This document shows positions 7,662 to 25,272 of a stretch of DNA of 39,743 nucleotides, in pieces; the first letter of the stretch is position 1; each line of letters opens with the position of its first letter. Below the pieces are notes generated by a model. That model did no database searches. It was not told the origin of the DNA and saw only the letters and a list, made by a program, of their open reading frames with translations. The position numbers were made by a program, and so were the translations under genes. Source of the DNA: a virus (lineage: Duplodnaviria; Caudoviricetes); IMG/VR virus record IMGVR_UViG_3300037424_000096, positions 1 through 39,743 of that record, one strand, 5' to 3'.

Positions 7662-8305
7662 GCGAGTTCGTGTTCGATGAAGTTGCGCACAAGTACTATC
7701 TCGACGGGGTAGAGTTACCGAGCGTGACAAGAATCCTAAAACCGCTGTATGACTTTTCAGCAATTGCCCCGGCAGTTCTGAAACATGCTGCGGATAGGGG
7801 GTCTGCTGTTCATAGAGCAATTGAACTCTGGATTGCTGACGATTTGGACGAATCCTCCCTGTGCGAAGAAATCAAACCGTACTTCGCCGGATTCAAGAAA
7901 TTCGTGTCGGAAAAACGTCCAGAGTTCGTCATGTCTGAACAAAAGCTGTACCACCCCGACATGATGTACGCTGGCACAATGGACATCATGCTTAAAATGC
8001 CCGGCCTGTACCTGATTGACGTAAAGAACACGGCAGCAGTGTCAGCGTCATGGGGAATCCAGCTACTCGCGTACCAAGAGGCTGCTATCGCTTGCCCTGA
8101 TATTGATTATGATAAAGTTGAGATAGGCAGAGCGCAGAGGGCCGTGCTGTGGTTAAAGAAAACCGGAACATACCAACTCGTACCGTTCCAGAAGCGTGAC
8201 TACGCCAACGACTTGCACCTGTTCACTGTTCTGCTCAACGCAGTTCACGCTGAAGCCACAAGCCAGAATGCCGTCGCTCAGTGGAAAAAATCGAAAGGAG
8301 AATAA
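7658..8305 (+). CDS. PD-(D/E)xK (RecB/lambda-exo-like) nuclease
   Basis: LPSVTRIL, RGSAVH, SEQKL, YAGTMD, LIDVK, QLLAY. Confidence 0.85.
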   Translation: MSEFVFDEVAHKYYLDGVELPSVTRILKPLYDFSAIAPAVLKHAADRGSAVHRAIELWIADDLDESSLCEEIKPYFAGFKKFVSEKRPEFVMSEQKLYHPDMMYAGTMDIMLKMPGLYLIDVKNTAAVSASWGIQLLAYQEAAIACPDIDYDKVEIGRAQRAVLWLKKTGTYQLVPFQKRDYANDLHLFTVLLNAVHAEATSQNAVAQWKKSKGE

Positions 8306-8306
8306 C

Positions 8307-9044
8307 GTGGAACTACCAACTCAAGTCACAATCGCGCAGGTTGACTACCGCGAATTGAATGAAGAGGCCGAAGGCTCCCTTCAAGTTTCGTCCAGCTTCA
8401 TCGTAGACAGTCCGGTTACATACGAACTCGCTGGTGAAGAATTGATTGCTGTGAAAAGCAAAATCAAGGCACTGGAAACACGCCGCGAGGGTATCACCAA
8501 GCCCCTAACCGCAGCGCACAAGTCTGTCATGGATTTGTTCAGGCAGCCTCTTGCCCTGCTCGGGCAGGCTAAAGACAACTTGCAGCGCGGGATGATTGCG
8601 TACAGTACCGAACAGGAGCGTGTCCGCCGCGAAGAACAGGCGCGTCTGGATGCAGAGCGTCGTCGGCAGGAAGCGGAGGCCGCTGAGAAAGTTCGCGAGG
8701 CAGAACGTCTGGCATCAGCAGCAGTGACCGAGGCACAACGAGAGGCTGCCGAAAAAGCGAGGCTTGAGGCTGAGGCTGCTCAGACTGTAGCCGAAAACGC
8801 AACGAGTGTGGCTGTTACGGCAACACCCAAGGCCGATGGTAACTCAGTGCGCAAGGTGTGGAAAGGGAAGTGTGACGACAAAGCTACCCTGATTAAATTC
8901 GTCGCAAGCAACCCCGCATACGCAAGCCTGTTGGAAGTAAGTCAATCCGCGCTCGACAGTTTCGCAAAAGCACAGAACGAGTCCTTCGACATTCCCGGCT
9001 GTGTCGCATACCAAGAATCAAGCATTGTGTCTAGGACTAAGTAA
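8307..9044 (+). CDS. Coiled-coil phage protein of the recombination module
   Basis: AAGGAG RBS then GTG 8307; long E/R/A-rich coiled coil; IPG near the C-terminus. Confidence 0.75.
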   Translation: MELPTQVTIAQVDYRELNEEAEGSLQVSSSFIVDSPVTYELAGEELIAVKSKIKALETRREGITKPLTAAHKSVMDLFRQPLALLGQAKDNLQRGMIAYSTEQERVRREEQARLDAERRRQEAEAAEKVREAERLASAAVTEAQREAAEKARLEAEAAQTVAENATSVAVTATPKADGNSVRKVWKGKCDDKATLIKFVASNPAYASLLEVSQSALDSFAKAQNESFDIPGCVAYQESSIVSRTK

Positions 9045-10948
9045 TGGCAACTGCTCTGTTCGACACAGAGGTATATCCAAACTACTTTCTGTGCAAGTTC
9101 TTCAATCCGGCCACAAGCGGCGAGGGTGACTTCGAGTTGTACGAAGGGCATCCTTTAGACAAGGAAAAGCTCAAGGAAGTCTTGACGAAGTACGAACTCG
9201 TGTCATTCAACGGAATCAATTTTGACGTGCCTATCGTCTGTCTCGCACTGGCAGGCGCATCCAACGAAGAACTCAAGGGCGCATGTGACCTCATTATTAG
9301 GGACAGCCTCAAGTCATGGCAATTTGAGCAACGCTACGACATCAAAATCCCCAAGCTGAATCACATTGACTTAATCGAAGTCGCGCCCGGCGTGATGGAC
9401 TCACTCAAGATATACGGCGGCAGGCTGCACACCAAGAAAATGCAAGACCTTCCCTACCCTCCCAACACAATCCTGTCCCCTGAACAAATGGCCGAAGTCA
9501 AAAAGTACTGCGGCAATGACGTGAAAGGCTTGACGCTCGATTTGTATAATGCCCTGAGCGTTGAACTAGATTTGCGCCGCGAAATGTCAGCGCAATACGG
9601 CGTTGATTTGCGTTCCAAGTCTAACCCTCAAATCGCAGAAACAATCATCTGCTCTGAGATTGAAAAGCTGCAAGACGCTCCTGTGAAAAGGTCTGATGCA
9701 AAACCGGGAATGACTTTCAAATACGAAGTCCCGAAGTTTATATCGTTCCAAACCGAATACCTGAAAAACGTGCTACGACTGGTACAAGAATCCACGTTCA
9801 CCGTGACGAACAGCGGAGCAGTTGAAGGATTGCACGAAGAGTTAGCTGAGCCGATTGAAATTAAGGGAAGCACGTACCAGATTGGCATCGGTGGTCTGCA
9901 CTCTTGCGAGTCCTGCGTTTCATATAGGTCTGACGTATACACTCAGATACTTGAGCAGGACGTAACCAGTTACTACCCGTTCATCATTCTGGTTTGCTCA
10001 CTGTTCCCAAAGCATATCGGGAAAGTTTTTTTAGATATTTATCGCAGTCTGGTCGATACAAAACTTTACGCTACCGTGAAGAAAGTGATTGAGTGCGCAA
10101 AGGTGCAAATCAACGGCCTGTTCGGAAAGTTGGGAAGCAAACACTCAAAACTATTTTCGCCTGACCTGATGCTGCAAATTACTATCACAGGACAGCTTGC
10201 CACGATTATGCTGATTGAAGATTTGGAACTCAACTCGATTCCAGTAATCAGCGCAAACACGGACGGTATCGTAATTGCCTGCCCGAGAGAACGGTTAGCA
10301 GACATGAACAAGATTGTTCGTACGTGGGAACACGACACAGGTTTCAAACTGAAGGACACGCCCTACCTCGCCATACACTCACGCGATGTGAACAACTATA
10401 TCGCAGTCAAGACTGACGGAACAATTAAACGCAGAGGGGTGTTCAGGAAGCCAGACTTGCAGCACAATCCGAAAAATGAAATATGCACAGACGCACTAAT
10501 TGCTTACCTGCGCGACGAAACTCCGATGGAGCAAACAATCAAAGACTGCACCGACATCCGTAAGTTCGTAGAAGTCAGGCGCGTAAACGGGGGCGCACTC
10601 TATGGGGCCATCGTGACCAAAACAAAAGAGTCAATCGGCTTCAACGAAGAGGGTGTCGAAAAGTTTACAACGCACACTGAAATAGAGGGCGGGGTTTACA
10701 TCGGCAAAGCTATCCGCTGGTATCACTCGACTGCGCCTGTGGAAGAACTCGTTGACGGCAAATCTGGAAATCACGTAGCAGACTCGGACGGAGGGATGCC
10801 CTGCATGGAATTACCGAACAGTCTGCCGGACGACATTGATTACGGCTGGTACATGCGTCAAGCTGAAGCAATGCTGCGCGGAGTTGGATTTAGTGAATCG
10901 TTTTTGCAATGGAAAGGGTACTTCAATGAAGATGCTGATTCTGAATAA
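9044..10948 (+). CDS. Family B DNA polymerase with 3'-5' exonuclease
   Basis: Exo motifs FDTE, FNGINFD, YCGND; polymerase motifs DVTSYYP, KVQINGLFGK, SANTDG. Confidence 0.92.
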   Translation: MATALFDTEVYPNYFLCKFFNPATSGEGDFELYEGHPLDKEKLKEVLTKYELVSFNGINFDVPIVCLALAGASNEELKGACDLIIRDSLKSWQFEQRYDIKIPKLNHIDLIEVAPGVMDSLKIYGGRLHTKKMQDLPYPPNTILSPEQMAEVKKYCGNDVKGLTLDLYNALSVELDLRREMSAQYGVDLRSKSNPQIAETIICSEIEKLQDAPVKRSDAKPGMTFKYEVPKFISFQTEYLKNVLRLVQESTFTVTNSGAVEGLHEELAEPIEIKGSTYQIGIGGLHSCESCVSYRSDVYTQILEQDVTSYYPFIILVCSLFPKHIGKVFLDIYRSLVDTKLYATVKKVIECAKVQINGLFGKLGSKHSKLFSPDLMLQITITGQLATIMLIEDLELNSIPVISANTDGIVIACPRERLADMNKIVRTWEHDTGFKLKDTPYLAIHSRDVNNYIAVKTDGTIKRRGVFRKPDLQHNPKNEICTDALIAYLRDETPMEQTIKDCTDIRKFVEVRRVNGGALYGAIVTKTKESIGFNEEGVEKFTTHTEIEGGVYIGKAIRWYHSTAPVEELVDGKSGNHVADSDGGMPCMELPNSLPDDIDYGWYMRQAEAMLRGVGFSESFLQWKGYFNEDADSE

Positions 10949-11075: not shown

Positions 11076-14000
11076 TCACTTTCTTGTAGCTACAAGAATT
11101 CGTTTCGCAACCACTTCTTTCTGTGCCTGCAATTTCAGAATCTCAACTCGCTTTTGTTCAGCCGACATTTCCGTATCCACTTCTATCTGACGGATGGCCG
11201 CGTTCAACTTAGCGATAACACTCTTCGATTTTCCAAAAGCCCTCGCCTGTTTTATTTTTTCAATGTTTTTCTTGCCGTACTCTTCAGCTTCCTTCGACTG
11301 GCCCTTCTTAATCAGCGAACGATATGTGCCGTAGGCAAGCTCGACTTCCTTAGCCTGTTCATACATCTGAGTCACATAACGGCTAGGCGCACCCTCAAGT
11401 TGGCTTATCAGCCCTCCGGTTGCTTTCTTTAAGGGGTCTGTAGCAGGTTGTACTGGCTGGCCTGTCAGCGGCCTCAGGATAAGGTCTGTTGCCTGCGATA
11501 TGAATGTCCCGAGCCATCCGAAGTAGCCTCGAATCACGTGATCTATCTGTACAGGTGAGGCAAAATTGCCTGACGTGACCGCGTCACCTGCAATAGACGC
11601 GCCTCGCGCAATAATTGTCGTGCCTGAGCGGTAGCGATATTCAGGTTCTACATTTTCCATTCCCTGACTTTCAATCTCTCTGCCTGTGAAGCTGTCCTTG
11701 TTGGCGTAAACGTCAAGCATGGGTTTGACTGCCTGCGGGATAGGATTCATGTTCAAATTATCTGCCAGATTGCGCAACAGCCTGTCCATGAACCTCTCAC
11801 CAGTCATTTCATCGCTGGCAAATAGCTCGACTCCGCGCTCAGCCATCGTAGCAATCGCGCCTATTTCAAATGGCTTAGGTACACGGTACGCAATTCCGCC
11901 AATCTTGAACCACCAGTACGTGTCCCTGTCCCAATCTTCGCGTTTCTTCCAGTCCTCGTCGTCCTTGTAATACAGCATGAGGAAAATTGAAATCATGGCT
12001 ACGGCAGAGAGAACTTTAGCTACTCTGGCCGGATTTTGTTTTGTAGCTTTTCCAAGCTTATACAACCCTTGAATACGTGCATTAATAAACGTGACAGTTT
12101 GGGTGATAAACCTGATTGCAGTCCACGAGCCGCCCATCGAAAAGTCAAGCAAGTCTCTCGCTTGGAATGCGGCCTCTCCGTGAGGGACACCCTGCTTGAT
12201 TAGCTGATTGTATAAAGCTGCGCGGTTGATTGCCTCGCCTCTGTTACCGAGTTCGTTGTATGCAGTGATGCTAGGTTCAATGACCCTCTTGTAAAACTTG
12301 CGCACGGCAGTCTCATTATCCAAGATAGTGCTTCTGTCAACGCCCTTCTCGACAAGAGCGCGAACCCTGTCCGATTCTCTGTTTTCCAGCATTGTGCCGA
12401 AGTGAATCGTGCTTCCGCTGGCAAGCAAGTTAAACATATCGTCGCTTCCGGGTTTGGTTTTTTTCCAGCCCTCTACTACGTTTTTTAACGGATTGTAGCT
12501 AAGCTCAGCGGCGGCAATCGAATGGACAGAGTCTCTAATCAGGTTACGAATCTTGAAGAACGGACTCGCAGTGACACCCATCGTAAGGAAGTGCTTAGGC
12601 GCACTGAGTAAATCCATAGCGTGACCGCGTAGCCCTGCGTATTCAAGTGCAGTGATTGCAACCAGCACAGCAGGGTCGTCTACGACGAAGTGACGCTTCT
12701 CACCCCTGTCCATGAACCACACTGAGTTCTTTTCAGGTGAAGTGACTTCATGTGCTACGCCGATTTTATCAGCAGCTTCAAGCGCAGCTTTTGCTCCACG
12801 ATTCTTAGCGGCAGCATCCAGCAAGTGCGACCAATTCAAGAGAGTGTTTTCAAGCAAGTCTGTATTAAGTTTTTCTGTGCCTCCACGAAGGTGTTTGAAT
12901 GCCTGCTGACGCACAACGCCTGACTTCACGTTTACCCCGCGTAGCCCTGAAATGTCGTCGTCGCTCACGCGGTAGAACGGAACATAAAATTCATACTCCC
13001 AAATCTTGCGCGCAGTCGGGTCAATCAGTCCAGACTGTTCGGCCATGTCCAAAGTGTTTTTGTTGAACTCGTTGAGAGTCTTGATTGCGTCCATGTAAAT
13101 TTCAAGACGCACTTTGGTCGTCTTTCCTTTTGACTGTCCGTGTTGCAGAGTGTAGTCAAACCCTGTGGTTCCGCTAGACAGCGATTTCATCGCAGTAATA
13201 TCAGACTGGGTGAACAGATTTTCCCTAGTCTGCGCGGCAAGACGTTCAGCACGGTTTGCGGCTACCCACCACAAGAAATCATCTCCCTCTCCTTGCAGCG
13301 GGACAAGCAGCCTGTTAATTACGCCGCCCTTTTTAGAAGTGTCAAAGGCGTAGGTCTGGTCAACCAGTTTAAGCTGTCCACCTTCCAGCAAAGTTGCGAA
13401 TGCTCCACTGGCCCCCTTGGATTGACGCAGCAGGCGGTATGCTTCATGGTCAATATCTTCAATCGGTGCAAACTGGTCTGCGATGCCTTGTGCCATAGAC
13501 TTCCCAAGCACGTGCCACAGTTTACTCATGCGCTCTTTTACGGTAGGAACTTCCACAGCCCTTCCGAGGTCTTCAAATGCCTTGAGTTGAGCAGCCGTGC
13601 GAGTGCGGCCAGTGTCGCCTGTGATTACTTTTTTCGAGTACTGAATTTCAGGCTTTGACATTTCGTTAAGAGTATTGCCTTGTACCGCCTCGATTTTAAT
13701 TTGACTCGGATTGAACACCACATACTGCGACCCCTCTCCGTATTGGTCTAAAACATCACGAGCAATGAGTCCGTCATAGCCATTGTCTCTCGCCCATTTT
13801 GCGATGTCGTCAATCTGTAGTGTCTTTTCAGGATTACCCCACTCCGCCTTGACTTCAGCGGGAGCAGGCAGTTCTAGCCACGACTCTCCATCTGCTTCAA
13901 CAACGTATGGGTTTTGTATGTTGAGATAGACCGCGTATAACTCACGCCCCTTGGCGTACCGCTCAGCGATATTGCGATTGTCAGTAAAAAATAAATTTCC

Positions 14001-17000
14001 ACCAACTCGCGTACCTCGCGCCAGAGCAAACTCGGTTTTGCCGGGAGCGTCACCCCGATACACAAGAAGCGGCTCACCCTTCGTGTTGACGACCTTTGAA
14101 CCGTCAAACCAGTGTCCGGGTGTTTCTGTCACAACTCGCACATTTTCTGCCGCCTTACCTAGCAGCACTGCCGTCCCTTGCCTGCCGAAGCCCTCCTTCA
14201 CATAGTAGCCGTCGAATCCAGCGTCAAGTACAGCACTCTCGAAATCGTTAAAAGTCTTTACCGTCAACTTAAGCGGATTGTTCGCAGCGTCGTAGAGGTT
14301 ATCCAGTTTGACTTCGTGCCTGAAACTACCTACGCCGCTCTCAGGGAACACTCCTTGACCTTCGTCAACATAGAACGAAATGCGCGACTTAATTCTCTGG
14401 TCACTGGATTCTACGAGGCGTTTCGATTCCGCGCCACGGATACCAGTACCGTATGCTGCGCCTGAGAGAGTTTTACGCTGTTGATTAGAAAAGTGGATAC
14501 CTGTTACAGACACGCGACCTGTCTTGCTAGAAACTTGTACTGCGCGCTTACCGCTAGGCAGCAAGAAAAACTCTGGATTGAAGTCACCCCACTTGGCGGC
14601 TTCAGGGCCAGCTAAGAACCCCTTGCCTCCGGCGTACTGCGCAATCGCGTCTTGCCGTAAGGTCTTGCTCACCTCGAAGGCTTCGGCCTTTGTCAGTGGT
14701 CGGTCAAGTTCAATCACACGAGTTGGTTCAGTGCCGGAAGTGTGAGTAATTTCACTCACCACAATCGCGCCAGTTGAATCGACTGCTTTTCGTATTTCTG
14801 CTTCAGTGAGTTTGCTGCCGTCATTCACGTCCATGCCAACGTTGAGCGTGGGCCGAGCTTTACGTTCACTTGCTGCAACTCTCTTTCCAGTAGCAATCTC
14901 TTTCATCGCGCTAACCGCAACGGCTTGCATGTCGTCAACGGTGAGGTCGTCAGCTTTCAATAACAGGCCGTGCTTGTACATCGCAGCACGGATGGCGGCA
15001 ACCCACTTGCGCAACGTCTGGCCTATCGTGAAATGCAGATTCCTTTGCACCCATCCCCAAAAATCTGAATCAAGCCGTGAGAATCCTGCACGGTGAGCTT
15101 CTTGCAGAGACTCTTCAACCAAGTAGTTCAGTGCCTCACGCGAATTCCCTTCTTGTCCAGCGCGTTGCATACGGTCAAACACTCGGTCATAAATCGGTAT
15201 GCCTTTGTAGAGGTCAATCTTTTTGAGTACAGCTTCGCCCAACGCAGCCATCTTAACGTCAGTGTCGGAAGCGTGAGTCATTTCATGCAGCATAACTGCA
15301 ACAGCTTCCTTGGCAGATACGTTGTCTGAATTTACGAAGGCGAGTCCGAGTTCTGGAACGTACAACCCGCGAGTAAATTCCAGTTTACGGCTAAACAGTG
15401 GCAGCCCTTCGTGTAAAACTTTCGCTTTGAGTTCAGCAGTGATGGTGAAGCCCGGCTGTTGCATAGCCTCGTCGCTGGTGACGTTTATCCGCACACCCTC
15501 GGAGTCAACCACTTCCTTTTGATGCGGCACGTCCAGCATTTCAAAAGAACTAACCTTACCTCCACCGCCGATCTTCTTCAAAATGTCGTTCGCTACCTGC
15601 GGCACGATATGGTCGTAGTAGCCTTTCATTCCTTCGCCGCCGACTTTGAGGTCTAGGCCTGAGTATGATTTTATGAATGCGCCCGGTCCAACAGAATCTT
15701 CTACAATCTTTTTTGCCAAGTCTTTACCAACGAACTCTTCCAGATCGTTAGCAGGCACGCTTGACTTTAAATGCTCCCATGTTAAATCATCGGCTGTCCG
15801 CTTTATTTGCAGCGCATAGCTTCCGTCACTGTTTTTATTCGCGCGAATACCTGCGACCTGTTTGGAAAGGTCGTATCTTGCACTTTGCTGTTCACCTGTC
15901 GTCCACGCAACCCGGTCGAATCCGTTCTCGGCGGCGTAGCGAATCATGCGTTTCAGGGCGAGGGCTGTCCATGATTTTGTGTCGGTGACGAAGGGGGCGG
16001 CAGGCACGAAGCCTCCGCCTTGAGGGTGATTCTGACGAAAATCGTCGTTATTCCTAGCTTGAAGGTCACGCCACTCAACTTCTCTACCTAAATACCCTGC
16101 AATTCCTTCGAGAGTGAGATTATTAACCGCGCCACGAGCAGCGTCAATGCTGACATTCAACGCAACTGCCCATTTCTGCGCAAGCTCATTTTTCCATCCG
16201 TCAATTGTTTTCTCGAACTCATCTTTCGCAAGCGGTTTCGTCTCACGCGCTTTGAACCCTTCCTTCTTCCCCTTCTGTCCCCAATCAGATTGTATTTCCT
16301 CAATGAAGAGAACCTTGTTTCCATTCGCGTCTGTGCGCTCGTTGAAGCGGACATGCGTGATGATGTTCGGTTGACCAGTAAAGTGCGGCGATTTGAAACT
16401 AGCAGGTTCACCCTCCTTTTTTGCAAGGCGTAACTGAGTTTCGAGATTGCGCAACTTACGTCCAAGTTCAACCTCGTCATCCTTCATTTCACCGAGGCCG
16501 CCAAGTAAAAGCTCATCATATTCAGCTTGCAAGGCGGCTATCCTATCCTTATTCGGCTTAGTCCGTTCTCCTTCAGGCAGCGTCAGCAGCAACTCGCGGT
16601 AGTTCTTTCCGCCGGGAAGCTGCCAAGATTGGTACTTTGGTGTGCCTTCTGGACGGTCAACGATGCGTTCTCCGCCAGCAATGCGTATGTAGCGGCGCTG
16701 ATTGTTCGCTCCGAGTTCTGCCCAAACATGTCCGTCGGCTTCCGCCCGAGCGCGGCCCGCCGCTTCTGCGTCGGCGCTTTCACCAAGTATCGTTTCTTTA
16801 ACCTGTACACCGCGCTGTTGCAAGAACTGGCGCACGTCGTCTTTAGAAATCTTACCCTGAGTTTCGAGCCAGTCACCGATGCCTGTCCAGAACAGTTCCT
16901 CTTTCTTCACGCCATATTTTGCAGCGTTAGATTCCAGCCAAGCCTTCACTTGTTTGCCGTTCGTAAAAATTCTGTCCGGGGCAGCGTCGATGGCGCGTTC

Positions 17001-20000
17001 AAGCTGACTGTAAAATACGGGAGCGAGTTCTTTAGTCTCTTTCGAGAATTGTATAGTCGCCGTTGGAGCATCTTCAACGCGAGATATTTTAGTTTTAACA
17101 ACGCTATTCGACATATCTAGCATGGTCTGCCAGTAGGCTTTAGCGTGGCCTTGGTAGAGTGCCGCTTTTTTAGCACCAGCCAATCCTTCTAACGCGACCC
17201 GTTGCGCAAACAATTTGTTATTGCTCAGGGTGAGGTCAAGCGCACGTCCTTCAGGACTGTTCAGCTTGTATGTTTTTCCTTCAAATTCAAATTGCGGAAT
17301 TGAATACCACGAACGCGCAGGGCCTTTCGAGTATTCCACCGAATACCATGCAGTATATAGTTTTCCCTTTTCGTCAACACGCTTGCCTTCGATGAAATCT
17401 GAAAGTGCGTCGTCGCGGTTGTAATCGAACATGTCCTGCAAGCGATGCACTTGCTCGTCTCTTTCCACCTGTTCGTCATAACTTAAGGGACGAATAGAAT
17501 ACTGTGCCTCACCCCGAGCCTTTAACAAGGATGCCAAGCGTCTATTATTTTCCCTTTCGGTTGAAATTATCAGGCCGCCGCGTTCGTTTTTATCACCTTT
17601 ATCCAGCAGCTTCTTGACGTAAGGAACCCACCCCGGTTGTTCTTTTTTAATTTCGTCCAGCACGGCCTCGCGACTCGCCCTGTGAAGTTTTTGAGTAAGG
17701 AACATCTCTTCGCCAGACGTGTCGCCCACCGATTTGAATATGCCCCGGTCGTCAGGATGGAACGTGCCATCCTCAACACCTGACCTCGTTGCAGTACCGT
17801 CTGCATACGAAATGACATCCAGTGGCCTAACTCCCATTGCACGGAGGGCAGTGCCTAAGTTGTTCATCGCATCTTCGGAAAATGAAGCATTTGGATTAGC
17901 GATGAACGCAGCACCCGGCGTAGTTTTTCCGAGGTCACGCGCAAGTGCAATCAGCCTACCGTCAGTGCGCAGTTCGGCGGCATGTTCAGGATTGACTGGA
18001 ATGAACGCAACAGGAACGTGCTGCCAAGACAGCACGAGAATTCCGGGAACATCACCAGCGAGTTTAGGCACAACTGCCTTAGCTGTCTCAGGACGGCTCA
18101 CTGAAGGTGCGTGTTCAGTTCGGCTATCATTCATTATCATACGTTCCTTAACAGGAACAATTGTAGTGTCGAACAACTCACCCTGTGATGTTCGCTGATT
18201 TGTGATATTGTTTAACGCAGTCTCGAATCCGCTGTGGTCAACAAAATTGTACATCACGCCGCCAGAGTCATTCCCAGCCATTGCGAACAATCCTTGATAC
18301 CTGACTCCTGACCTGTCTAGCAGCATCGAAATCATCTGATTCAGTTTGTAATCTTGCTCTGAGAACATAGAGTTGCCGGACGGGTGATTGTGGGATGTCC
18401 ATACGTTCTTCGCGTTCGGAATCTGAGCTATTTCAAACAGGAGAGTGTCAGCAAATACGGGAGTTTGACCAATCGCGCCTTTGAACGAACCTACAACTGC
18501 AAGAGGTGTGCCGTTGGCATCGGTAACTATCGCGTCATAATGTTCGACAGCATACTTTGGCATGAACGAAAACGCCCTAGCCGCATCTTCTACTGACACA
18601 ATCACGGTAGGCAACTCGCGGTTGTTCACTTCAACAAGTTCGGTAGTCACCAGATATGTACCCTCGGTTTTTCCGGGGTGTATTGACATGCTGTTTACTC
18701 CACTCTCAATAATCTCAGGAGCGTCTTGCATGGAAATCGGTTCTGCGGCGATATTCGCAGATTCGTCGAATGTGCCTTTATTGCCAAGCGCAGATTTGAT
18801 TTGAGCAGCGTCGAATGCGACATAGACATCGTGATTATTAATCCTGTCTTGGTCAAGTTCTTGCATAATCACGCCGTCATACCCTAACGATTTCAGTGCC
18901 TCGACAAGTTCTTTCCCGCCCTCATCATACTCAAACATTTCCCACTGATTCTGAAGGTTGTTCAGAGCGCGAATGTTTATGCCTGACTTTTCTAATTCAG
19001 TCCACAGTTTTTCAGAAACCCCATTCCGTATATCGGCTGGATTTTCCATACGCACATAAGTCTGGACAACGTTGCGCCCTGCTCTCGGGTCAAGGTTATT
19101 ATTGTTTACTCCGAACGTCTCAGCGAACTTGGCTTCAGGTGTGAAGAAGATACCTGCTCGTTGCGTGTCATACGTGACCCCGAACATACCTGTGTTCTTG
19201 GAAGGGCGGCCACTTTCAAATTCTGAAATATCAGCAGCAGTTCCGTGATAGAGAACCAGCGGTTTATTTTTTTCGTCAACGGTTTTTGAATTGCCGAACC
19301 ACTTGGCGAAATTTGCCAATCCTTGCTTAGTTGAACTAATCGGTTTACCAGCAGAATTCACATTACGAACGCCTGCCGCCGAGGTGCGCTTATTCGCCAG
19401 TTCGTTATCGAACAGTCCGTACTGCGCAGCAGGTTCAGCCACGCCTGTCGTTTTACCACCCTTGACAATTTGCGCGATTGCACGTGCAGCTTCAGCAGCA
19501 GGGGCATCAGCTTGTTCATAGGCTTTTGCAGTGCGATTCCACCATGACAATTCTGCTTGCGTCATTTGCCTAGTGCCGTTCATCAATTCTTTAGCGCGAG
19601 TGATTGCTGGTTGAAGATTCAGTTTCCTGCCAAGTGTACTTGCAGCGGGGGTCTTGCGCTTAATCAGCGTTTCAATTAACGGCTTGATGCCTTGAACTTG
19701 CTCAGCAGTTCCGCGCCCTTCTTCGATGGCAGTTTCTTGCCCTTGGATTTCTGGTTGTACTCTTCCACGTTCACCCTCTGCGATTCCAGCTTCTCCCGGT
19801 TCGCGTTGAAGTATTTGCGCTGTGCTTCCGACTTGTACGGCATTTGGAACCTCCTGTGTCGCCACGATTGACGCGAGTTCGTCGCGAGTGAATTCAGGAA
19901 CATTTAATTCGGTGTCTTGTTGTGTCGGTTGCGGTACTGGAATTGTAGGAGTTCCGACTGCTGTATCGCCGATTGCTTTATCCACGCTGACACTGACTGG

Positions 20001-21539
20001 CCGCTGGATAACATTTGGTGTACCTGTTCCAGAAACGCTACTTGCTCCACTTCCTCCGGCAATATCAGTCCTTTCTTCACTGCCCACTTGAGGTGCCTCG
20101 GACGGTACAGCTTTAGTAGTCGCGCCATTTGTGCCTCCTTGAATTGCTTGTGATAGTTCTTGTCTGTTAAATGTAGGAGGCGTAGTATCTGGCGTAGTTA
20201 CTACACGTTGCGCAGCCCCCTGTATTGCCCCGGCAGGTGCGCCAATCAATCCCCCGATTAACGCAGATGTTCCGGCCCCTTCCATAACAGGGCGGAAGGA
20301 TGCGATATTTTGAATGTTCTGTTGTAATTCTTCTTGGATTGCGTTAGAACCAGCCGCATTCAACGCGCCCTTCAAGGGGGAAATAATGTTGTTGAAAAAC
20401 GCGATTTTATCCGTAATGTAGTTGGTGGGTATGTTCGCCAAAAACACAGCATCCGAACGACTTATTGCCATTTCCTCGGACGCGCCACGCGCCTTCAGAT
20501 CACTGTAGGTTGAGCCAGCTTCCATTGCGGCTTCCAGCGTTGCCATTGTTCCAGCACCCATACCTTGCTTAACCGCGAGAGGAAGTGCCGCCACAACGTC
20601 AGCCGCTTTCATTACACCCAAACCAGTAATATAAAATAATCCGAATGAACCGATGCCAGCAGCAAGTTCATCCGCGAACTTTTGTTCACGAGGGAGTAAG
20701 CGATTAGCCATACCCCCCATTGTCTGACCGACTTCAGATAACGTTGCGATACCCGTTTTTGCTCCAAGGTAGTCGTAGAGAGAACCTATGCCTTGGTTTA
20801 CACCCGCTGCAACATCGGAGGCGTAACGCATCGCGCCTTCCTTATCGGCTGGTGCGAAATTCAACGCAGCGTCAATTGTGGGTAAATTCGTAGTCTGAGT
20901 GCCGCGTTCAAAATCCTGTTGAACAACGTTGGCAGCAGTCTCGGGGGCAATCTCAGGGGTAAATACACGCAAGGACGACTCACGCACCTCTCTGCGGCCA
21001 TCGCCTAAACCAGTAAGGGTAGGTAGCTTAGTGGCTTGTTCGTCGGCTGCACGGTACGTCTCCGTGATTCTGCGCACGACATTGCCAACTGCACCGGGTA
21101 CGTTTTGCATCCGAATGCGTTGTTCAGGAGTGGCTGCATCGAATCTGTATTTGATTTGGTCGAAGGTATCCTGAGTAACAGGTGCGCCCATGCGGTCAAT
21201 CTTCGGCTGAGCAGAGGGTTGAGGCACGTAGCCGTGCATGACAGACTCAGGTAAGTCTACTGGTTCAGGGGATGCCGCGTATTGTCTGTCGGGTACATCG
21301 CGGTTTGCCGCCTGCATAGACGGTTCAGACGGCCCCACTCGAATCTGGCCAGAAGATACATTCTTAGGATTTGGTGCAGGATTAAAGGATTCCGACACTG
21401 CCGCGATGCCACGTTGAAGTGCGGTTTTTGGAGGTGCATATTCAGGGTATTCACTTTGGATAGCCGACTCAATGGATTTGTCATCCATGTAATCAGGAAA
21501 ATCAAGCAAATCCTTATTTGGCAACTCAATGCGTTTCAT
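11076..21539 (-). CDS. Giant polyvalent internal virion/ejection protein (ART-like x3, JAB x2, GNAT-like, HExxH peptidase, SAM-lyase-like, LPD38)
   Basis: 3487 aa, last gene of the ejection cluster. Motifs PLVLYHGT..GIFFT..GYDGV..YVAFDAAQIKS, SHNHPSG..S..D, EEIQSDW, HEMTH, PLLVYRG..LFFT..GYDGL..YVVFNPSQIK, and C-terminal YRVPKPFEIG..NKDSFTGREIE..SPVQIDH (LPD38). Confidence 0.9.
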   Translation of the reverse strand: MKRIELPNKDLLDFPDYMDDKSIESAIQSEYPEYAPPKTALQRGIAAVSESFNPAPNPKNVSSGQIRVGPSEPSMQAANRDVPDRQYAASPEPVDLPESVMHGYVPQPSAQPKIDRMGAPVTQDTFDQIKYRFDAATPEQRIRMQNVPGAVGNVVRRITETYRAADEQATKLPTLTGLGDGRREVRESSLRVFTPEIAPETAANVVQQDFERGTQTTNLPTIDAALNFAPADKEGAMRYASDVAAGVNQGIGSLYDYLGAKTGIATLSEVGQTMGGMANRLLPREQKFADELAAGIGSFGLFYITGLGVMKAADVVAALPLAVKQGMGAGTMATLEAAMEAGSTYSDLKARGASEEMAISRSDAVFLANIPTNYITDKIAFFNNIISPLKGALNAAGSNAIQEELQQNIQNIASFRPVMEGAGTSALIGGLIGAPAGAIQGAAQRVVTTPDTTPPTFNRQELSQAIQGGTNGATTKAVPSEAPQVGSEERTDIAGGSGASSVSGTGTPNVIQRPVSVSVDKAIGDTAVGTPTIPVPQPTQQDTELNVPEFTRDELASIVATQEVPNAVQVGSTAQILQREPGEAGIAEGERGRVQPEIQGQETAIEEGRGTAEQVQGIKPLIETLIKRKTPAASTLGRKLNLQPAITRAKELMNGTRQMTQAELSWWNRTAKAYEQADAPAAEAARAIAQIVKGGKTTGVAEPAAQYGLFDNELANKRTSAAGVRNVNSAGKPISSTKQGLANFAKWFGNSKTVDEKNKPLVLYHGTAADISEFESGRPSKNTGMFGVTYDTQRAGIFFTPEAKFAETFGVNNNNLDPRAGRNVVQTYVRMENPADIRNGVSEKLWTELEKSGINIRALNNLQNQWEMFEYDEGGKELVEALKSLGYDGVIMQELDQDRINNHDVYVAFDAAQIKSALGNKGTFDESANIAAEPISMQDAPEIIESGVNSMSIHPGKTEGTYLVTTELVEVNNRELPTVIVSVEDAARAFSFMPKYAVEHYDAIVTDANGTPLAVVGSFKGAIGQTPVFADTLLFEIAQIPNAKNVWTSHNHPSGNSMFSEQDYKLNQMISMLLDRSGVRYQGLFAMAGNDSGGVMYNFVDHSGFETALNNITNQRTSQGELFDTTIVPVKERMIMNDSRTEHAPSVSRPETAKAVVPKLAGDVPGILVLSWQHVPVAFIPVNPEHAAELRTDGRLIALARDLGKTTPGAAFIANPNASFSEDAMNNLGTALRAMGVRPLDVISYADGTATRSGVEDGTFHPDDRGIFKSVGDTSGEEMFLTQKLHRASREAVLDEIKKEQPGWVPYVKKLLDKGDKNERGGLIISTERENNRRLASLLKARGEAQYSIRPLSYDEQVERDEQVHRLQDMFDYNRDDALSDFIEGKRVDEKGKLYTAWYSVEYSKGPARSWYSIPQFEFEGKTYKLNSPEGRALDLTLSNNKLFAQRVALEGLAGAKKAALYQGHAKAYWQTMLDMSNSVVKTKISRVEDAPTATIQFSKETKELAPVFYSQLERAIDAAPDRIFTNGKQVKAWLESNAAKYGVKKEELFWTGIGDWLETQGKISKDDVRQFLQQRGVQVKETILGESADAEAAGRARAEADGHVWAELGANNQRRYIRIAGGERIVDRPEGTPKYQSWQLPGGKNYRELLLTLPEGERTKPNKDRIAALQAEYDELLLGGLGEMKDDEVELGRKLRNLETQLRLAKKEGEPASFKSPHFTGQPNIITHVRFNERTDANGNKVLFIEEIQSDWGQKGKKEGFKARETKPLAKDEFEKTIDGWKNELAQKWAVALNVSIDAARGAVNNLTLEGIAGYLGREVEWRDLQARNNDDFRQNHPQGGGFVPAAPFVTDTKSWTALALKRMIRYAAENGFDRVAWTTGEQQSARYDLSKQVAGIRANKNSDGSYALQIKRTADDLTWEHLKSSVPANDLEEFVGKDLAKKIVEDSVGPGAFIKSYSGLDLKVGGEGMKGYYDHIVPQVANDILKKIGGGGKVSSFEMLDVPHQKEVVDSEGVRINVTSDEAMQQPGFTITAELKAKVLHEGLPLFSRKLEFTRGLYVPELGLAFVNSDNVSAKEAVAVMLHEMTHASDTDVKMAALGEAVLKKIDLYKGIPIYDRVFDRMQRAGQEGNSREALNYLVEESLQEAHRAGFSRLDSDFWGWVQRNLHFTIGQTLRKWVAAIRAAMYKHGLLLKADDLTVDDMQAVAVSAMKEIATGKRVAASERKARPTLNVGMDVNDGSKLTEAEIRKAVDSTGAIVVSEITHTSGTEPTRVIELDRPLTKAEAFEVSKTLRQDAIAQYAGGKGFLAGPEAAKWGDFNPEFFLLPSGKRAVQVSSKTGRVSVTGIHFSNQQRKTLSGAAYGTGIRGAESKRLVESSDQRIKSRISFYVDEGQGVFPESGVGSFRHEVKLDNLYDAANNPLKLTVKTFNDFESAVLDAGFDGYYVKEGFGRQGTAVLLGKAAENVRVVTETPGHWFDGSKVVNTKGEPLLVYRGDAPGKTEFALARGTRVGGNLFFTDNRNIAERYAKGRELYAVYLNIQNPYVVEADGESWLELPAPAEVKAEWGNPEKTLQIDDIAKWARDNGYDGLIARDVLDQYGEGSQYVVFNPSQIKIEAVQGNTLNEMSKPEIQYSKKVITGDTGRTRTAAQLKAFEDLGRAVEVPTVKERMSKLWHVLGKSMAQGIADQFAPIEDIDHEAYRLLRQSKGASGAFATLLEGGQLKLVDQTYAFDTSKKGGVINRLLVPLQGEGDDFLWWVAANRAERLAAQTRENLFTQSDITAMKSLSSGTTGFDYTLQHGQSKGKTTKVRLEIYMDAIKTLNEFNKNTLDMAEQSGLIDPTARKIWEYEFYVPFYRVSDDDISGLRGVNVKSGVVRQQAFKHLRGGTEKLNTDLLENTLLNWSHLLDAAAKNRGAKAALEAADKIGVAHEVTSPEKNSVWFMDRGEKRHFVVDDPAVLVAITALEYAGLRGHAMDLLSAPKHFLTMGVTASPFFKIRNLIRDSVHSIAAAELSYNPLKNVVEGWKKTKPGSDDMFNLLASGSTIHFGTMLENRESDRVRALVEKGVDRSTILDNETAVRKFYKRVIEPSITAYNELGNRGEAINRAALYNQLIKQGVPHGEAAFQARDLLDFSMGGSWTAIRFITQTVTFINARIQGLYKLGKATKQNPARVAKVLSAVAMISIFLMLYYKDDEDWKKREDWDRDTYWWFKIGGIAYRVPKPFEIGAIATMAERGVELFASDEMTGERFMDRLLRNLADNLNMNPIPQAVKPMLDVYANKDSFTGREIESQGMENVEPEYRYRSGTTIIARGASIAGDAVTSGNFASPVQIDHVIRGYFGWLGTFISQATDLILRPLTGQPVQPATDPLKKATGGLISQLEGAPSRYVTQMYEQAKEVELAYGTYRSLIKKGQSKEAEEYGKKNIEKIKQARAFGKSKSVIAKLNAAIRQIEVDTEMSAEQKRVEILKLQAQKEVVAKRILVATRK
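19676..19843 (-). CDS. Nested +1-frame small basic protein (MPYKSEAQRKYF...), 55 aa
   Basis: AGGAGG-TTCCAA-ATG; resembles small stand-alone phage proteins of the MP(F/Y)KSxAQR...KGKKLP type (recalled, not searched). Confidence 0.7.
   Translation of the reverse strand: MPYKSEAQRKYFNANREKLESQRVNVEEYNQKSKGKKLPSKKGAELLSKFKASSR
19904..20128 (-). CDS. Nested +1-frame small protein, 74 aa
   Basis: AAGGAGG-CACAA-ATG; same frame as, and directly upstream of, the MPYKS gene. Confidence 0.55.
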   Translation of the reverse strand: MARLLKLYRPRHLKWAVKKGLILPEEVEQVAFLEQVHQMLSSGQSVSAWIKQSAIQQSELLQFQYRNRHNKTPN

Positions 21540-21602: not shown

Positions 21603-22766
21603 TTAATTTGAAACGAAGCCTTGGCCGGGAACGTATCTACGAACCTTTGGCTGGCTGTTTGCCGGAGGTTGTTCACCGGGGTAAAGTTCGCCAGCGATAC
21701 CTCGCGCAGATTCCATCGAAGCACCCGGCATGTCAGCAGCTTTTAAGTAGACCTGACCTGCAAATTGGCTAATCTCGCTAGACCTTATTGGCCGTCCCTG
21801 AGCATCTACAAGTTGCTTAACTGTCCCGTCTTTCATCAAGGCCATCATATTGCCATTAACATCAGCAAAGCTGCGCTGCACTGACGCGCTTCCACCTCCT
21901 ACCGCGCCTGACCTTGGCGCACGACTCTTGCCACGCGCTCCTTCCACCGGAACCATGCGCCCCCTTGCGTCGAACGCAGTTACGTTGCCAGCGTCGTCGG
22001 TTGTTACATGCGCAATCTTACCCGGAGAATTTACCAACTGCTCATACGCTGCCCCAAATGCTTCATCGTAAGACGCGCCCTGTGACATAGCGTCCATCGC
22101 AGTGTTCACAAATGCTGAAATTTGGGATACATCAGCACCCTGCCCCTTGGCGTAAGCTGCCAAAGACTGCACTGAAGTAATTGCTCTCGGGTTGTTGAAC
22201 ATCGGCAAAACGTCTTGCAGCCGATAAAATTCGGCGTACTGTTTGGCTCCTTGCACGTTTCCAACCGCAAGAAGTTCAAGCACCTTGTCTGCCTTTGCGT
22301 CGTGGTCTTTTCTCGCAGCACTTTCTCCGCTCATTTGACCTTGAGCGAGTTGCATTGCAAGCTGTCCGCCTCCGGGTGTTTGCGCGGCAAGTCGCAATGC
22401 GCGTTGTTGGCGAGTATCAGGAGCGGCAGGAACCTGCCGGGCAACTTCACGCTCTGAAGGAATTTCTGAAGCGTTCGGCACAGCAAATCCAGAAAGTGAA
22501 CCACCGCGTTTCAGTCCTTCGACTGAGTTGTTTCGAGTCGCGCCAAATGAAGTCTGGCCTGACGAAAGCCCGTAGTTAGGCTCAGTTGTGGTTTCGGTAC
22601 TCGCAGTAGGCGCACCCTCTCCGTAAATACCTGCCACGCCTCGGGCGAGTTCGTCCTGTTGAATCGCCCTGCGACGTTCCATTTCCTGTTGTGCAAGCTG
22701 GCGGTTGCGATCTTCAGTAGCGCGCATCGTGTCCAACATGATAGGTCTGTCGATGTAGTTTACCAT
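21603..22766 (-). CDS. Putative ejection/DNA transfer protein (P22 gp20-like position)
   Basis: Ala/Gln/Gly-rich; lies between the pilot-like gene and the giant gene. Confidence 0.65.
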   Translation of the reverse strand: MVNYIDRPIMLDTMRATEDRNRQLAQQEMERRRAIQQDELARGVAGIYGEGAPTASTETTTEPNYGLSSGQTSFGATRNNSVEGLKRGGSLSGFAVPNASEIPSEREVARQVPAAPDTRQQRALRLAAQTPGGGQLAMQLAQGQMSGESAARKDHDAKADKVLELLAVGNVQGAKQYAEFYRLQDVLPMFNNPRAITSVQSLAAYAKGQGADVSQISAFVNTAMDAMSQGASYDEAFGAAYEQLVNSPGKIAHVTTDDAGNVTAFDARGRMVPVEGARGKSRAPRSGAVGGGSASVQRSFADVNGNMMALMKDGTVKQLVDAQGRPIRSSEISQFAGQVYLKAADMPGASMESARGIAGELYPGEQPPANSQPKVRRYVPGQGFVSN

Positions 22767-23563
22767 GACGAATTTACCCCTGTGTCATAACTGCTCTTGC
22801 GGCTGTCTGCATTGTAACTTTTTAGTACGTCAACCAGTGACGGTGAAAGTACTTCGCCTATAGCGCGTTGCGTAACACCTGCATTAGCCAGTCCAGCGTT
22901 AGCCAGTTCTTGCCCGGAAGCTCCGGCGAGATTCGCCGTGTTTGTGCCAGTCAGCGAAGTCAGGTTAGATGTCGTTGCGCCTAACTGCCTCTGGCCTGCG
23001 GCAAGCTGATTGCCAAGGTTAATATCTGCGCCTGATGCGGCGTTCGTTGCAGAAACATTTACCCCTGCCAGTCTCGCGGCAGCGTCGTCCGACCTAGCCC
23101 GATTCGAGTCGTAAATCTGATTTTCCAAATTCCCGGCAGCGCGTGTCGCAATCGCTGTCGCAGAACGCCCTCCCAATCTGGATGCCAGTTGATTTGCAGT
23201 TTCCCTGCGAGTATCCATGATGCGTTGCTGCTGCTCAGGGGTGATTGAATTGTCAGAAACTACGCGCCCAAGATAGTCAATAGCTGGCCGTGTCCCCGCC
23301 AGAATCGGGTCAAGTCTCGCTTGCGATTTAGCATTCGCGTCTCGCTGTTGCTGAGCGGCAGCCGCCTCGTATGCGGCGGCTTCGCGCATCGCTTGTATAT
23401 TGGCGTTCGCAGATATTTGCGCGGCCTGAGTATTCGCACCGGCGATTGCGTTCGCGGCATCGGTGTTGGCACTCGTCGTCATGTACGTGCTGATTGCAGC
23501 AGGTATCGCCGTGGTGATAATTCCACCCCAATCAATGTCGCCAAGAAAATCTGACCATCCCAT
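22760..23563 (-). CDS. Putative pilot/ejection protein (P22 gp7-like)
   Basis: Hydrophobic N-terminus, Ala/Asn/Gln-rich helices, position. Confidence 0.7.
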   Translation of the reverse strand: MGWSDFLGDIDWGGIITTAIPAAISTYMTTSANTDAANAIAGANTQAAQISANANIQAMREAAAYEAAAAQQQRDANAKSQARLDPILAGTRPAIDYLGRVVSDNSITPEQQQRIMDTRRETANQLASRLGGRSATAIATRAAGNLENQIYDSNRARSDDAAARLAGVNVSATNAASGADINLGNQLAAGQRQLGATTSNLTSLTGTNTANLAGASGQELANAGLANAGVTQRAIGEVLSPSLVDVLKSYNADSRKSSYDTGVNSSW

Positions 23564-23575
23564 TTGATTCTCCCT

Positions 23576-23938
23576 TTACATACCCCTGCCGAATCTTACT
23601 CCGGTGGGATATTTCATTTCTTCAGGCTCGTTCGCTTCCCCTGCGGCAAACCCTTGAAGTGGATTCTGTGCCATTTGCGGCTGCCGTTGCATTTGAGGCT
23701 GTGCCAATTCTTGAGGAACGACACTTGCCTGCAAGTTTACAAGCGGAGACAGTAGCATCACAGCTTGGTCGCCGAACAGTTTAGCCATGACCTGCACAAG
23801 TTGCGGAGTCACCGATTGGGACAGGATTTGAATTTCCTGTGGAGCAAGTCCTTGCAGCGCGGCCTGCCTAATCTTTTCTCCCATTCCAGAACCGCTCTCT
23901 TGCGGCTGTGCGTCAGTCGGCATTGCTTGCATATTCAT
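23576..23938 (-). CDS. Hypothetical Gln/Pro/Met-rich protein
   Basis: GGAGGGA RBS; ATGA overlap with the upstream gene. Confidence 0.7.
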   Translation of the reverse strand: MNMQAMPTDAQPQESGSGMGEKIRQAALQGLAPQEIQILSQSVTPQLVQVMAKLFGDQAVMLLSPLVNLQASVVPQELAQPQMQRQPQMAQNPLQGFAAGEANEPEEMKYPTGVRFGRGM

Positions 23939-25272
23939 TTTACTTCCCTCCCGTATAAATGTTCGTAATCAGTATCTCCAACAAATTGCCCTATCGTCCA
24001 GCAAATAGCCAAAGCGACTGGAATTGTAATCATCCCCAGTAAAGTCTCCTTGCCGTGTCCAACTCGTGCGGCAGACTCTTTCATAAAGCGTTTAGCAATC
24101 GGACGGACGAAGGCATACACGCGCTCGTTTCTGCGCATTATCTTCGTCACAGGAACAGCCCACAAGCGGTAACCTCGAATCGTTGAATCGGATAGAGTTC
24201 TCACGTAACGGTATTCCAGTTGTAACTCAGTTAGAGTAGCGTCATTGCGTAGAGTAAGTTCAGTGCAAATGACTGAACCACCACCACCGCCGAATACAGC
24301 TCCTACGATACCTCCTATTGGGCCAAGTACTGCGCCTAGCGCAGCCCCACCCATCGAACTACCAACCGCCGCCCCAACTGCGTTTCCAACTAAACCGCCA
24401 ATAGCACCTCCTACGTTCCCTGTAGCTAACGCAAGTGCGGGGCCAACAAACGAAGCGGCTGGGCCGCCGAACGGACTAATTGCCGAAGCTGCCCCTCCCC
24501 CCTCAGCACTGAACCAAGGTGCAGCGGCAGAATAACCGCCATTGAACGCTGCTGACGTGCTTGCCACGCTGCCAATTCCGCTACCTACAGCACTTCCGAA
24601 ATCGCCTAAGCCTGCGCCGTATCCACTGAATCCAGCAGAGGACAAACCTCCGACTGCCTTTGCTCCTGTAGCACCAGCCAAACTGTAAGTAGGCGAGGCC
24701 CAATCAGCCGCGCCTAGTCCGCCTAGCCCTATTGAACTTGAAGCTGCACCTGCTGCCAATCCGTAAGCAGGGGTCGTGTAATTCAGCGCATCGCCGATGT
24801 CGTAACTATCACCAAAATCGCCAAGACCAGCCCCGATGTTACCCGTACTTGAGGAAGTCATTTCACCCACCGCGCCGGGTGTTGGCGCACTCAGATTTGC
24901 CTGAGGGGTCTTGAACGAATCCATAATACTGTTCACGGCCTTACCTGCAACATTTGTTGCGATCTTTCCGCCAACATTCATTAGCAGTTGCTCACCGATT
25001 CCGGGAGCCTGCGGCATTTGAGGCATTTGAACGGCAGGGGCGTAATAGTTTGAAACAGGACTAGGAGCAGGTGCGGGGGCAGGCTGCACCTTTTCCACAC
25101 CCGTATCCTCAGCAGTTTCCTGCGAGGCCCACAACGGCGATACGGAACCAGACGCACGGAACCCGCCACGGCTAGACCGGGAAGTGCTTAAATCTTCAGA
25201 CTTTCCACTGTCTGTCTGAAGTTCCTCGGTGCTTCGGCTTGGCCGTAATCCGCTTCTGTCCTGATAACCCAT
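23935..25272 (-). CDS. Putative internal virion protein with glycine zipper and C-terminal VICTEL...GY..WA.P domain
   Basis: AGGAGG RBS; GxxxG repeats; hydrophobic C-terminal helix. Confidence 0.7.
   Translation of the reverse strand: MGYQDRSGLRPSRSTEELQTDSGKSEDLSTSRSSRGGFRASGSVSPLWASQETAEDTGVEKVQPAPAPAPSPVSNYYAPAVQMPQMPQAPGIGEQLLMNVGGKIATNVAGKAVNSIMDSFKTPQANLSAPTPGAVGEMTSSSTGNIGAGLGDFGDSYDIGDALNYTTPAYGLAAGAASSSIGLGGLGAADWASPTYSLAGATGAKAVGGLSSAGFSGYGAGLGDFGSAVGSGIGSVASTSAAFNGGYSAAAPWFSAEGGGAASAISPFGGPAASFVGPALALATGNVGGAIGGLVGNAVGAAVGSSMGGAALGAVLGPIGGIVGAVFGGGGGSVICTELTLRNDATLTELQLEYRYVRTLSDSTIRGYRLWAVPVTKIMRRNERVYAFVRPIAKRFMKESAARVGHGKETLLGMITIPVALAICWTIGQFVGDTDYEHLYGREVK

Follow-up and report, generated by a model that had tools for sequence, protein, structure and literature searches.

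What does a small domain do when it sits inside a phage protein of 3487 residues? The question is raised by the viral contig IMGVR_UViG_3300037424_000096 (39,743 bases, estimated to be 49% complete; "the window" below means the whole of this stretch), in which an uninterrupted minus-strand open reading frame (ORF) at 11076-21539 encodes such a giant protein. A first-pass annotation had placed a domain resembling S-adenosylmethionine (SAM) lyases within it, and translation of 14556-14852 on the minus strand indeed gave residues 2230-2328, without a stop and with all of the quoted segments. Our best explanation, to which we give a probability of roughly 0.48, is that the giant protein is likely packaged and injected with the DNA and that its mobile domain likely cleaves SAM or a SAM-type substrate, thereby blunting SAM-dependent defence. 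Judged from its sequence and predicted models, the domain probably works like a SAM lyase, though it is not a formal member of that family; we do not file it there because the Gly-x-Tyr motif and the T-loop are lost, a tail is added and the profile scores stay below the Pfam cut-off. The domain and its conserved elements are the following.

14532..14852, minus strand: SAM-lyase-like domain, residues 2230-2336, PHROG 11722; predicted core b1-a1-b2-b3-a2-b4 plus b5 and a C-terminal tail
14835..14846, minus strand: first-strand motif L-N-[IV]-G, residues 2232-2235, resembling the first strand of Svi3-3
14721..14738, minus strand: S-x-T-E-x-T motif, residues 2268-2273, whose Glu2271 opens strand b3 and corresponds to Svi3-3 E69 and T3 E68
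14649..14654, minus strand: Gln2296-Asp2297 on the loop that joins helix a2 to strand b4, where Svi3-3 has Q104-E105 and T3 has Q94-D95
14550..14615, minus strand: family-specific tail L-x-G-P-x-A-x-x-W-G-x-F-N-P-x-x-F, residues 2309-2330; candidate substitute for the lost Tyr/T-loop lid

Two results argue that this is a real domain and not a chance run of motifs. PHROG 11722, a nameless family of 124 positions, matches residues 2231-2328 over its positions 5-122 (E 4.6e-12), and phmmer against 1.84 billion representatives (50% clustering) returned 811 matches at E<=0.001, 256 of them at E<=1e-10. We examined conservation across 239 domains sharing less than 62% identity, 117 of them embedded in longer proteins and 122 stand-alone. 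Gln2296 is invariant (239/239) and is followed by Asp or Glu in 233 members; Asn2233, Gly2235, Glu2271 and Thr2273 are each kept in 237 and Ser2268 in 234. The tail, which lies outside the residues (1-91) that align to Svi3-3, is similarly strict at Gly2311 (237/239), Trp2317 (237/239) and Phe2325 (234/239). Embedded copies retain the Glu (116/117) and the Gln (117/117) as strictly as the free forms do, which argues that the cargo form is not a relic. The lack of a GxY motif before the Glu, already noted in the first-pass annotation, is a trait of the whole family and not decay of the window copy: G-x-[YFW] occurs within 16 residues before the Glu in only 11 of the 239 non-redundant members, and by hairpin register the positions of Gly56 and Tyr58 are occupied by His, Arg or Gln and by an invariant Ser. 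The G+C fraction of the domain (0.54) is close to the 0.49-0.51 of the remaining gene and gives no sign of a recent transfer.

The models predict a ferredoxin-like fold with an extra C-terminal strand. AlphaFold2 gave b1-a1-b2-b3-a2-b4-b5 plus tail for the window domain (predicted local distance difference test, pLDDT, 96.6) and the same topology for a stand-alone member (pLDDT 95.9), with a b2-b3 turn of about 2 residues in the former and 4 in the latter. In the models Glu2271 is placed at the beginning of b3 and Gln2296 on the a2-b4 loop, as has been described for known lyases. It had been proposed that an unrelated fold would count against a SAM lyase; Svi3-3 came first in five of five PDB fold searches with the two models, with modest scores that ACT domains equal. 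Foldseek ranked it at the top with E 5.8e-3 and a template modelling (TM) score of 0.40 for one model and with E 4.0e-3 and TM 0.54 for the other, and VIA-align did so with Z 8.2 (root-mean-square deviation, rmsd, 2.7; 88 residues aligned), Z 8.6 (2.5; 89) and Z 9.2 (3.4; 92). The T3 SAM lyase reached Z 5.7 over 99 residues and the SAM-AMP lyase 9gab Z 5.4 (rmsd 2.9; 78 aligned). By itself the predicted fold does not decide on kinship.

Sequence profiles pointed to the T3-type lyases. PF23780, the family of T3 gp0.3, matched 4 of 35 members and then, as the only Pfam family match, 7 of 51 further members (51 of 112 newly gathered proteins); no ACT Pfam family appeared among the 35 or the 51 scanned. 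Achromobacter phage Axy09 has a single PF23780 match in its whole genome, and this match lies within its family member, gene 003. A profile of 90 stand-alone members, searched against 177,635 PDB sequences, returned only the T3 SAM lyase at E<=10 (E 0.17), and hhalign of the stand-alone profile with seven T3-type proteins (71%, E 3.7e-5) put the Glu on T3 E68 and the Gln-Asp pair on T3 Q94-D95. A 326-row family alignment gave 7.5% in hhalign, with a score of 21.6, whereas 60 column shuffles reached at most 17.9. Glu and Gln kept the same register with T3 in all three hhalign alignments, the third being a 35-row alignment that holds the window domain. The only PDB match of that 35-row profile, an arsenate reductase (E 0.45, over a short stretch), was rejected as a chance match.

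The motifs on which the SAM-lyase reading had been built are correct: IFVGLNVGD, TENS and QESVIV agree with Svi3-3 as given in the supplement of PMC7877911, and TEEKT and QDCVLVY are present in the T3 protein. Their order holds in the window domain and their spacing only in part, since Glu and Gln are 25 residues apart here, 26 in T3 and 35 in Svi3-3, and the distance from the first strand to the Glu is 38 here versus about 53 in Svi3-3 (hand count). Three lines, each weak but in agreement, speak for kinship with SAM lyases: the fold ranking, the profile register with T3 E68/Q94 and the early-gene position of stand-alone relatives described next, whereas the counterparts of Gly56 and Tyr58 are missing.

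This SAM-lyase-like module is divergent and widespread, and it comes in two forms, as cargo and as an early gene. Among the best 150 of the 811 relatives, 120 lie in proteins of at least 400 residues, 63 in proteins of at least 2000 and 30 in stand-alone proteins of fewer than 200, a list that favours embedded forms because it is ranked by likeness to an embedded query. The 80 IMG/VR loci kept from a pattern scan, duplicates included, comprise 17 embedded and 63 stand-alone copies. In the 63 giants the domain lies anywhere from 4% to 93% along the chain, and the flanks of 64 domain copies form 29 upstream and 35 downstream clusters; with both position and flanks varying in this way, we regard the domain as a mobile cassette. 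A tree of the 239 domains (117 columns) sets 92 stand-alone members apart as a clade, the other group being mostly embedded; it needs 14 changes, against a shuffled mean of 80. The direction and number of captures cannot be read from this tree because it is too short and weakly supported.

Thirty-five cultured-phage records carry the domain according to tblastn. It is encoded there by small genes annotated as "hypothetical", most of which belong to the early region of T7-like phages. Erythrobacter phage vB_EliS-L02 is another carrier of a stand-alone relative. In the cultured T7-like phage vRsoP-WM2, the stand-alone gene (1046-1405) lies upstream of the RNA polymerase, an early position comparable to that of T3 gene 0.3 (SAMase) at 901-1359. 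A loose first look at four cultured carrier phages revealed neither Ocr (PF08684) nor a T3-type SAMase scoring above the cut-off, which fits a replacement. Crude ORF calls around stand-alone genes in viral contigs gave neighbours that were replication-type by eye, and clustering of these neighbours revealed no recurring defence partner. Scanning prokaryote genomes with a single sequence, a method that detects close relatives only, found no relative among 372 pattern matches.

Several copies depart from the common form. Five Acinetobacter phage records (regions L003:2630-3124 and L103:3220-3707) retain no more than the C-terminal 60% of the domain, which follows a different N-terminus in AB_SZ6; in PMK34 the short coding sequence was deposited with the label "structural protein". 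A stand-alone form (P0022; L019:7992-8580) is fused to a second small C-terminal domain. In P0088, an intact copy is followed directly by a degenerate one lacking the Glu and Gln motifs (residues 622-846). Two different giants (L006:10001-10291 and L009:10001-10291) share look-alike flanks on both sides of the domain, ending ...AVHDAFGH, and look as if the domain had been inserted into another domain.

The protein that carries the domain in the window combines several unrelated domains, including LPD38 and ART-PolyVal, in one giant chain. Its features and those next to it are the following.

11076..21539, minus strand: gene of the giant polyvalent phage protein, 3487 residues; ends the minus-strand virion operon and likely encodes a packaged ejection protein
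18768..19277, minus strand: ART-PolyVal domain, residues 755-924, the best of two stretches (Pfam)
18300..18590, minus strand: RadC-like JAB domain, residues 984-1080 (Pfam)
15264..15287, minus strand: HExxH-x-x-D zincin-like metallopeptidase motif, residues 2085-2092; candidate releaser of the SAM-lyase-like domain
14205..14507, minus strand: neighbouring module without a name, residues 2345-2445; its position varies among the 28 of 63 giant carriers that have it
11448..11960, minus strand: LPD38 domain, residues 3194-3364 (Pfam)
21603..25272, minus strand: four genes without annotation (445, 120, 267 and 387 residues) between the tail genes and the giant gene

By PHROG and Pfam, the block closed by the giant gene encodes the major capsid, adaptor, tail and head-closure proteins and a lysozyme, and the giant gene shares its strand with these virion genes. 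The four genes at 21603..25272 matched no PHROG or Pfam family and, from their position, likely encode small ejection proteins. The C-terminal 874 residues of the giant protein match giant proteins in 48 phage records. Sixteen of the 63 giant carriers were scanned for domains: 13 contain LPD38, LPD22, LPD23, InPase or ART-PolyVal, one has GGDEF only and two gave no match. DUF7178 occurs in 7 of the 16, in three of them as two stretches. In a neighbourhood scan covering 23 neighbour proteins from 11 loci, three loci had a tail protein followed by a muralytic protein ahead of the giant gene, with an internal virion protein in between at one of the three; another locus had a DarB-like neighbour. 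We take the order at the three loci to be that of the T7 ejection genes. The LPD38 giants phi24B gp47 and JC1 gp69 have been detected in virions by mass spectrometry; ejection has been proposed for the former, and the published data on the latter are consistent with it. Domain architecture, gene order and the virion proteomics of other LPD38 proteins speak for cargo status.

Based on these findings, we propose the following course of events. The giant polyvalent protein would be packaged in the virion and ejected with the DNA, as has been suggested for phi24B gp47, and the nearby HExxH-x-x-D peptidase, whose motif lies about 140 residues ahead of the domain, may release it. That motif is known from the peptidases of phage polyvalent proteins (PMC5512222); a Pfam scan gave no match at residues 2085-2092. 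As in Svi3-3, Glu and Gln would hold the methionine end of SAM and its carboxylate would attack the gamma carbon, with 5'-methylthioadenosine (MTA) and homoserine lactone as the expected products. The Trp/Phe tail may stand in for the lost Gly-x-Tyr lid or for a neighbouring subunit, and one chain would then form its own active site, which would permit insertion into long proteins. A trimer is not a strict requirement, as T3 SAMase likewise forms none: it is described as a monomeric barrel on MetK and as a dimer when free. Lyase action also remains plausible because the SAM-AMP lyase has only Glu and Gln structurally in common with Svi3-3, because Tyr58Phe costs Svi3-3 only a fivefold loss and because T3 SAMase is not a trimer. 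The domain would act locally, close to the incoming DNA, or be relevant in small cells with small SAM pools.

A number of observations weigh against this explanation. Pfam found nothing on residues 2230-2328 of the giant ORF, including no LPD model, and the PF23780 profile had no match over the whole window. The best family member reached 26.5 bits against a PF23780 gathering cut-off of 28, and the 35-row alignment yielded only 3.7% against T3-type proteins in hhalign and no lyase among PDB sequences. All Foldseek matches lie above E 0.001 with modest scores, and ACT or HPPK domains come within 1 Z unit of Svi3-3. This family lacks the Gly56-x-Tyr58 of Svi3-3. Guo et al. (2021, PMC7877911) aligned four enzymes and found three residues strictly conserved, Gly56 among them; they describe G56D as disabling and Tyr58 as stacking on the sulfonium. 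At seven of the 11 loci the neighbours had no family match, and the embedded form was absent from the regions examined in the 35 cultured-phage records. An E. coli cell contains about 1e5 SAM molecules. At 9.5 per second, the published rate of Svi3-3, some 10 injected copies would need 15-20 min without resynthesis, which makes a bulk drain of SAM by few injected copies kinetically doubtful; so small a number per virion would matter only with local action, a faster enzyme or a small host. Furthermore, Svi3-3 and Orf1 are described as failing against BREX (bacteriophage exclusion) even when expressed from a plasmid. Searches with the domain as a single sequence were empty for PDB (by phmmer), ESM Atlas and NCBIfam, and a word-based homolog search at near length yielded none of 28 candidates.

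The copy-number problem would disappear if the domain were a lyase for a scarce SAM-derived signal, such as SAM-AMP or an unknown SAM adduct, and not for SAM, since few injected copies would then suffice. We consider this unlikely, although it survives best among the alternatives. SAM-AMP lyase and AcrIIIB4 retain only the Glu and Gln of the Svi3-3 site, and our models keep almost no T-loop, a change that would leave the ribose side open. On the other hand, 9gab ranks below Svi3-3 in the fold comparison (Z 5.4 vs 8.2), Trp64 of the SAM-AMP lyase T-loop has no counterpart here, and the rare CorA type III systems would hardly seem to account for so widespread a family.

We find it somewhat less probable that the domain binds without cleaving, acting as a sponge for SAM, S-adenosylhomocysteine or a nucleotide signal, or as a stoichiometric inhibitor of a host enzyme such as a methyltransferase or SAM synthase. 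The loss of Gly-x-Tyr would agree with this, and so would the conserved Glu, because Glu69 of Svi3-3 mainly orients the substrate (Guo et al. 2021, PMC7877911); moreover, catalytically dead T3 SAMase still inhibits MetK, and PII-like relatives bind nucleotides. A sponge would need many copies, however, more than an injected giant is expected to supply; the N-terminal tail and QTH loop with which the T3 enzyme binds MetK are absent here; and the mild effect of Tyr58Phe in Svi3-3 speaks against loss of catalysis. In the same enzyme E69Q lowers activity 4500-fold.

It is improbable that a SAM lyase acts late, in the producing cell, leaving progeny DNA unmethylated with injection as an incidental consequence. 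T3 SAMase keeps T3 DNA unmethylated (PMC8406200) and late expression would provide far more copies than a virion does, but fusion to an ejection protein would then be needless, the stand-alone forms are found among early genes and the domain is kept across many different scaffolds. Convergence, in which the domain is of the ACT type or has another ferredoxin fold and binds an unrelated ligand, is very improbable: ACT ties Svi3-3 on Z (7.9-8.2 vs 8.2-8.6) and each sequence signal is weak when taken alone, but independent profile tests indicate the T3 SAM lyase and no ACT family, Svi3-3 aligns over 88-92 residues versus 75-78 for ACT, and the invariant residues coincide with the catalytic positions of lyases.

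For the injected SAM-lyase-like domain that we favour, no publication on the family or on an injected SAM lyase appeared in the literature searched, largely at abstract level and with few subscription journals; the phage SAM lyases of the cited papers are, as described there, small free proteins. In the main text of PMC5512222, "lyase" and "adenosyl" occur 0 times, and its FTP (file transfer protocol) domain tables might list the domain without a name. One may tentatively go further and see in this family a large undescribed branch of SAM lyases, its site rebuilt to work in a single chain with no Gly-x-Tyr lid, used as a standard cassette of ejection proteins on many scaffolds and delivered pre-made with the DNA, where it would destroy SAM or a SAM-derived immune signal before phage gene expression; we regard this broader picture as possible but more doubtful than not. 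If true, the pre-loaded form would act before phage gene expression, when restriction and BREX strike, and three things would gain a function: a nameless family that spans hundreds of clusters, early genes annotated as "hypothetical" in cultured T7-like phages, and a module common in polyvalent proteins. The copy-number problem would make the outcome informative either way, indicating a fast or local SAM lyase or else an unknown SAM-derived signal. At 105 residues, the domain is simple to express and assay.

Further parts of the giant protein and its surroundings stood out. The module at residues 2345-2445, without a match in the Pfam scan, carries the motifs HFS...YGTG...RISFYVD...GFDGY, and its H-x-S and GFDGY ends presumably recall an ADP-ribosyltransferase. 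Residues 1480-2040 (15420-17102, minus strand) form a long region common to about 20-22 of the 63 giant carriers, also without a match in the Pfam scan. A plus-strand replication block (6900-10948) with an annealing protein, two exonucleases and a DNA polymerase runs towards the end of the giant gene, and a helicase and a primase lie on the minus strand at 3448-5870. The Aeromonas phage phiARM81mr (L104:145-1778) encodes a giant protein with the same C-terminal scaffold; its tail genes include a reverse transcriptase beside a "23S rRNA-intervening sequence protein", a pair with the look of a diversity-generating retroelement.

Compared with known systems, the domain is closest in fold to Svi3-3 (PDB 6zm9, 6znb), its top structural match, with which it shares the predicted ferredoxin-like fold with an extra C-terminal strand, a first-strand motif of the G-L-N-V-G type, the Glu at the start of b3 and the Gln plus acidic residue in the a2-b4 loop. 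It differs in a T-loop of about 2 residues versus 10-12 and in the GPxAxxWGxFNPxxF tail, absent from Svi3-3; identity is 15-16%. Svi3-3 is a free trimer with its sites between subunits, whereas the domain here is embedded in a 3487-residue protein. With T3 gp0.3 (PF23780; PDB 7ock, 8bb1), E68 and Q94-D95 are in register at nearly the same Glu-Gln spacing (25 here vs 26), and the E68Q/Q94A form of the T3 enzyme is reported to be inactive. Stand-alone relatives share its early gene position, and its C-terminal extension and non-trimeric state provide a precedent. The domain here has no GxY/F and a C-terminal extension of another kind, and the T3 enzyme is made after entry. The C. botulinum SAM-AMP lyase (9gab) and phage AcrIIIB4 belong to the same fold class, and equivalents of their Glu71 and Gln108 are present in the modelled domain. 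Only Glu and Gln are structurally common to the SAM-AMP lyase and Svi3-3, as they are here, yet it is a lyase (bioRxiv 2025.04.28.651013). This CRISPR-associated enzyme is a trimer with a long T-loop bearing Trp64; its AMP-site T-loop of 10-12 residues is not matched here, and the T-loop of Svi3-3 would clash with AMP (bioRxiv 2025.04.28.651013). The carrier, finally, resembles the phage polyvalent proteins described by Iyer et al. (2017, PMC5512222), phi24B gp47 and JC1 gp69: like them it is giant, multidomain and encoded in the virion gene block, and its LPD38, ART-PolyVal, RadC and HExxH-x-x-D elements are those of the polyvalent-protein set.

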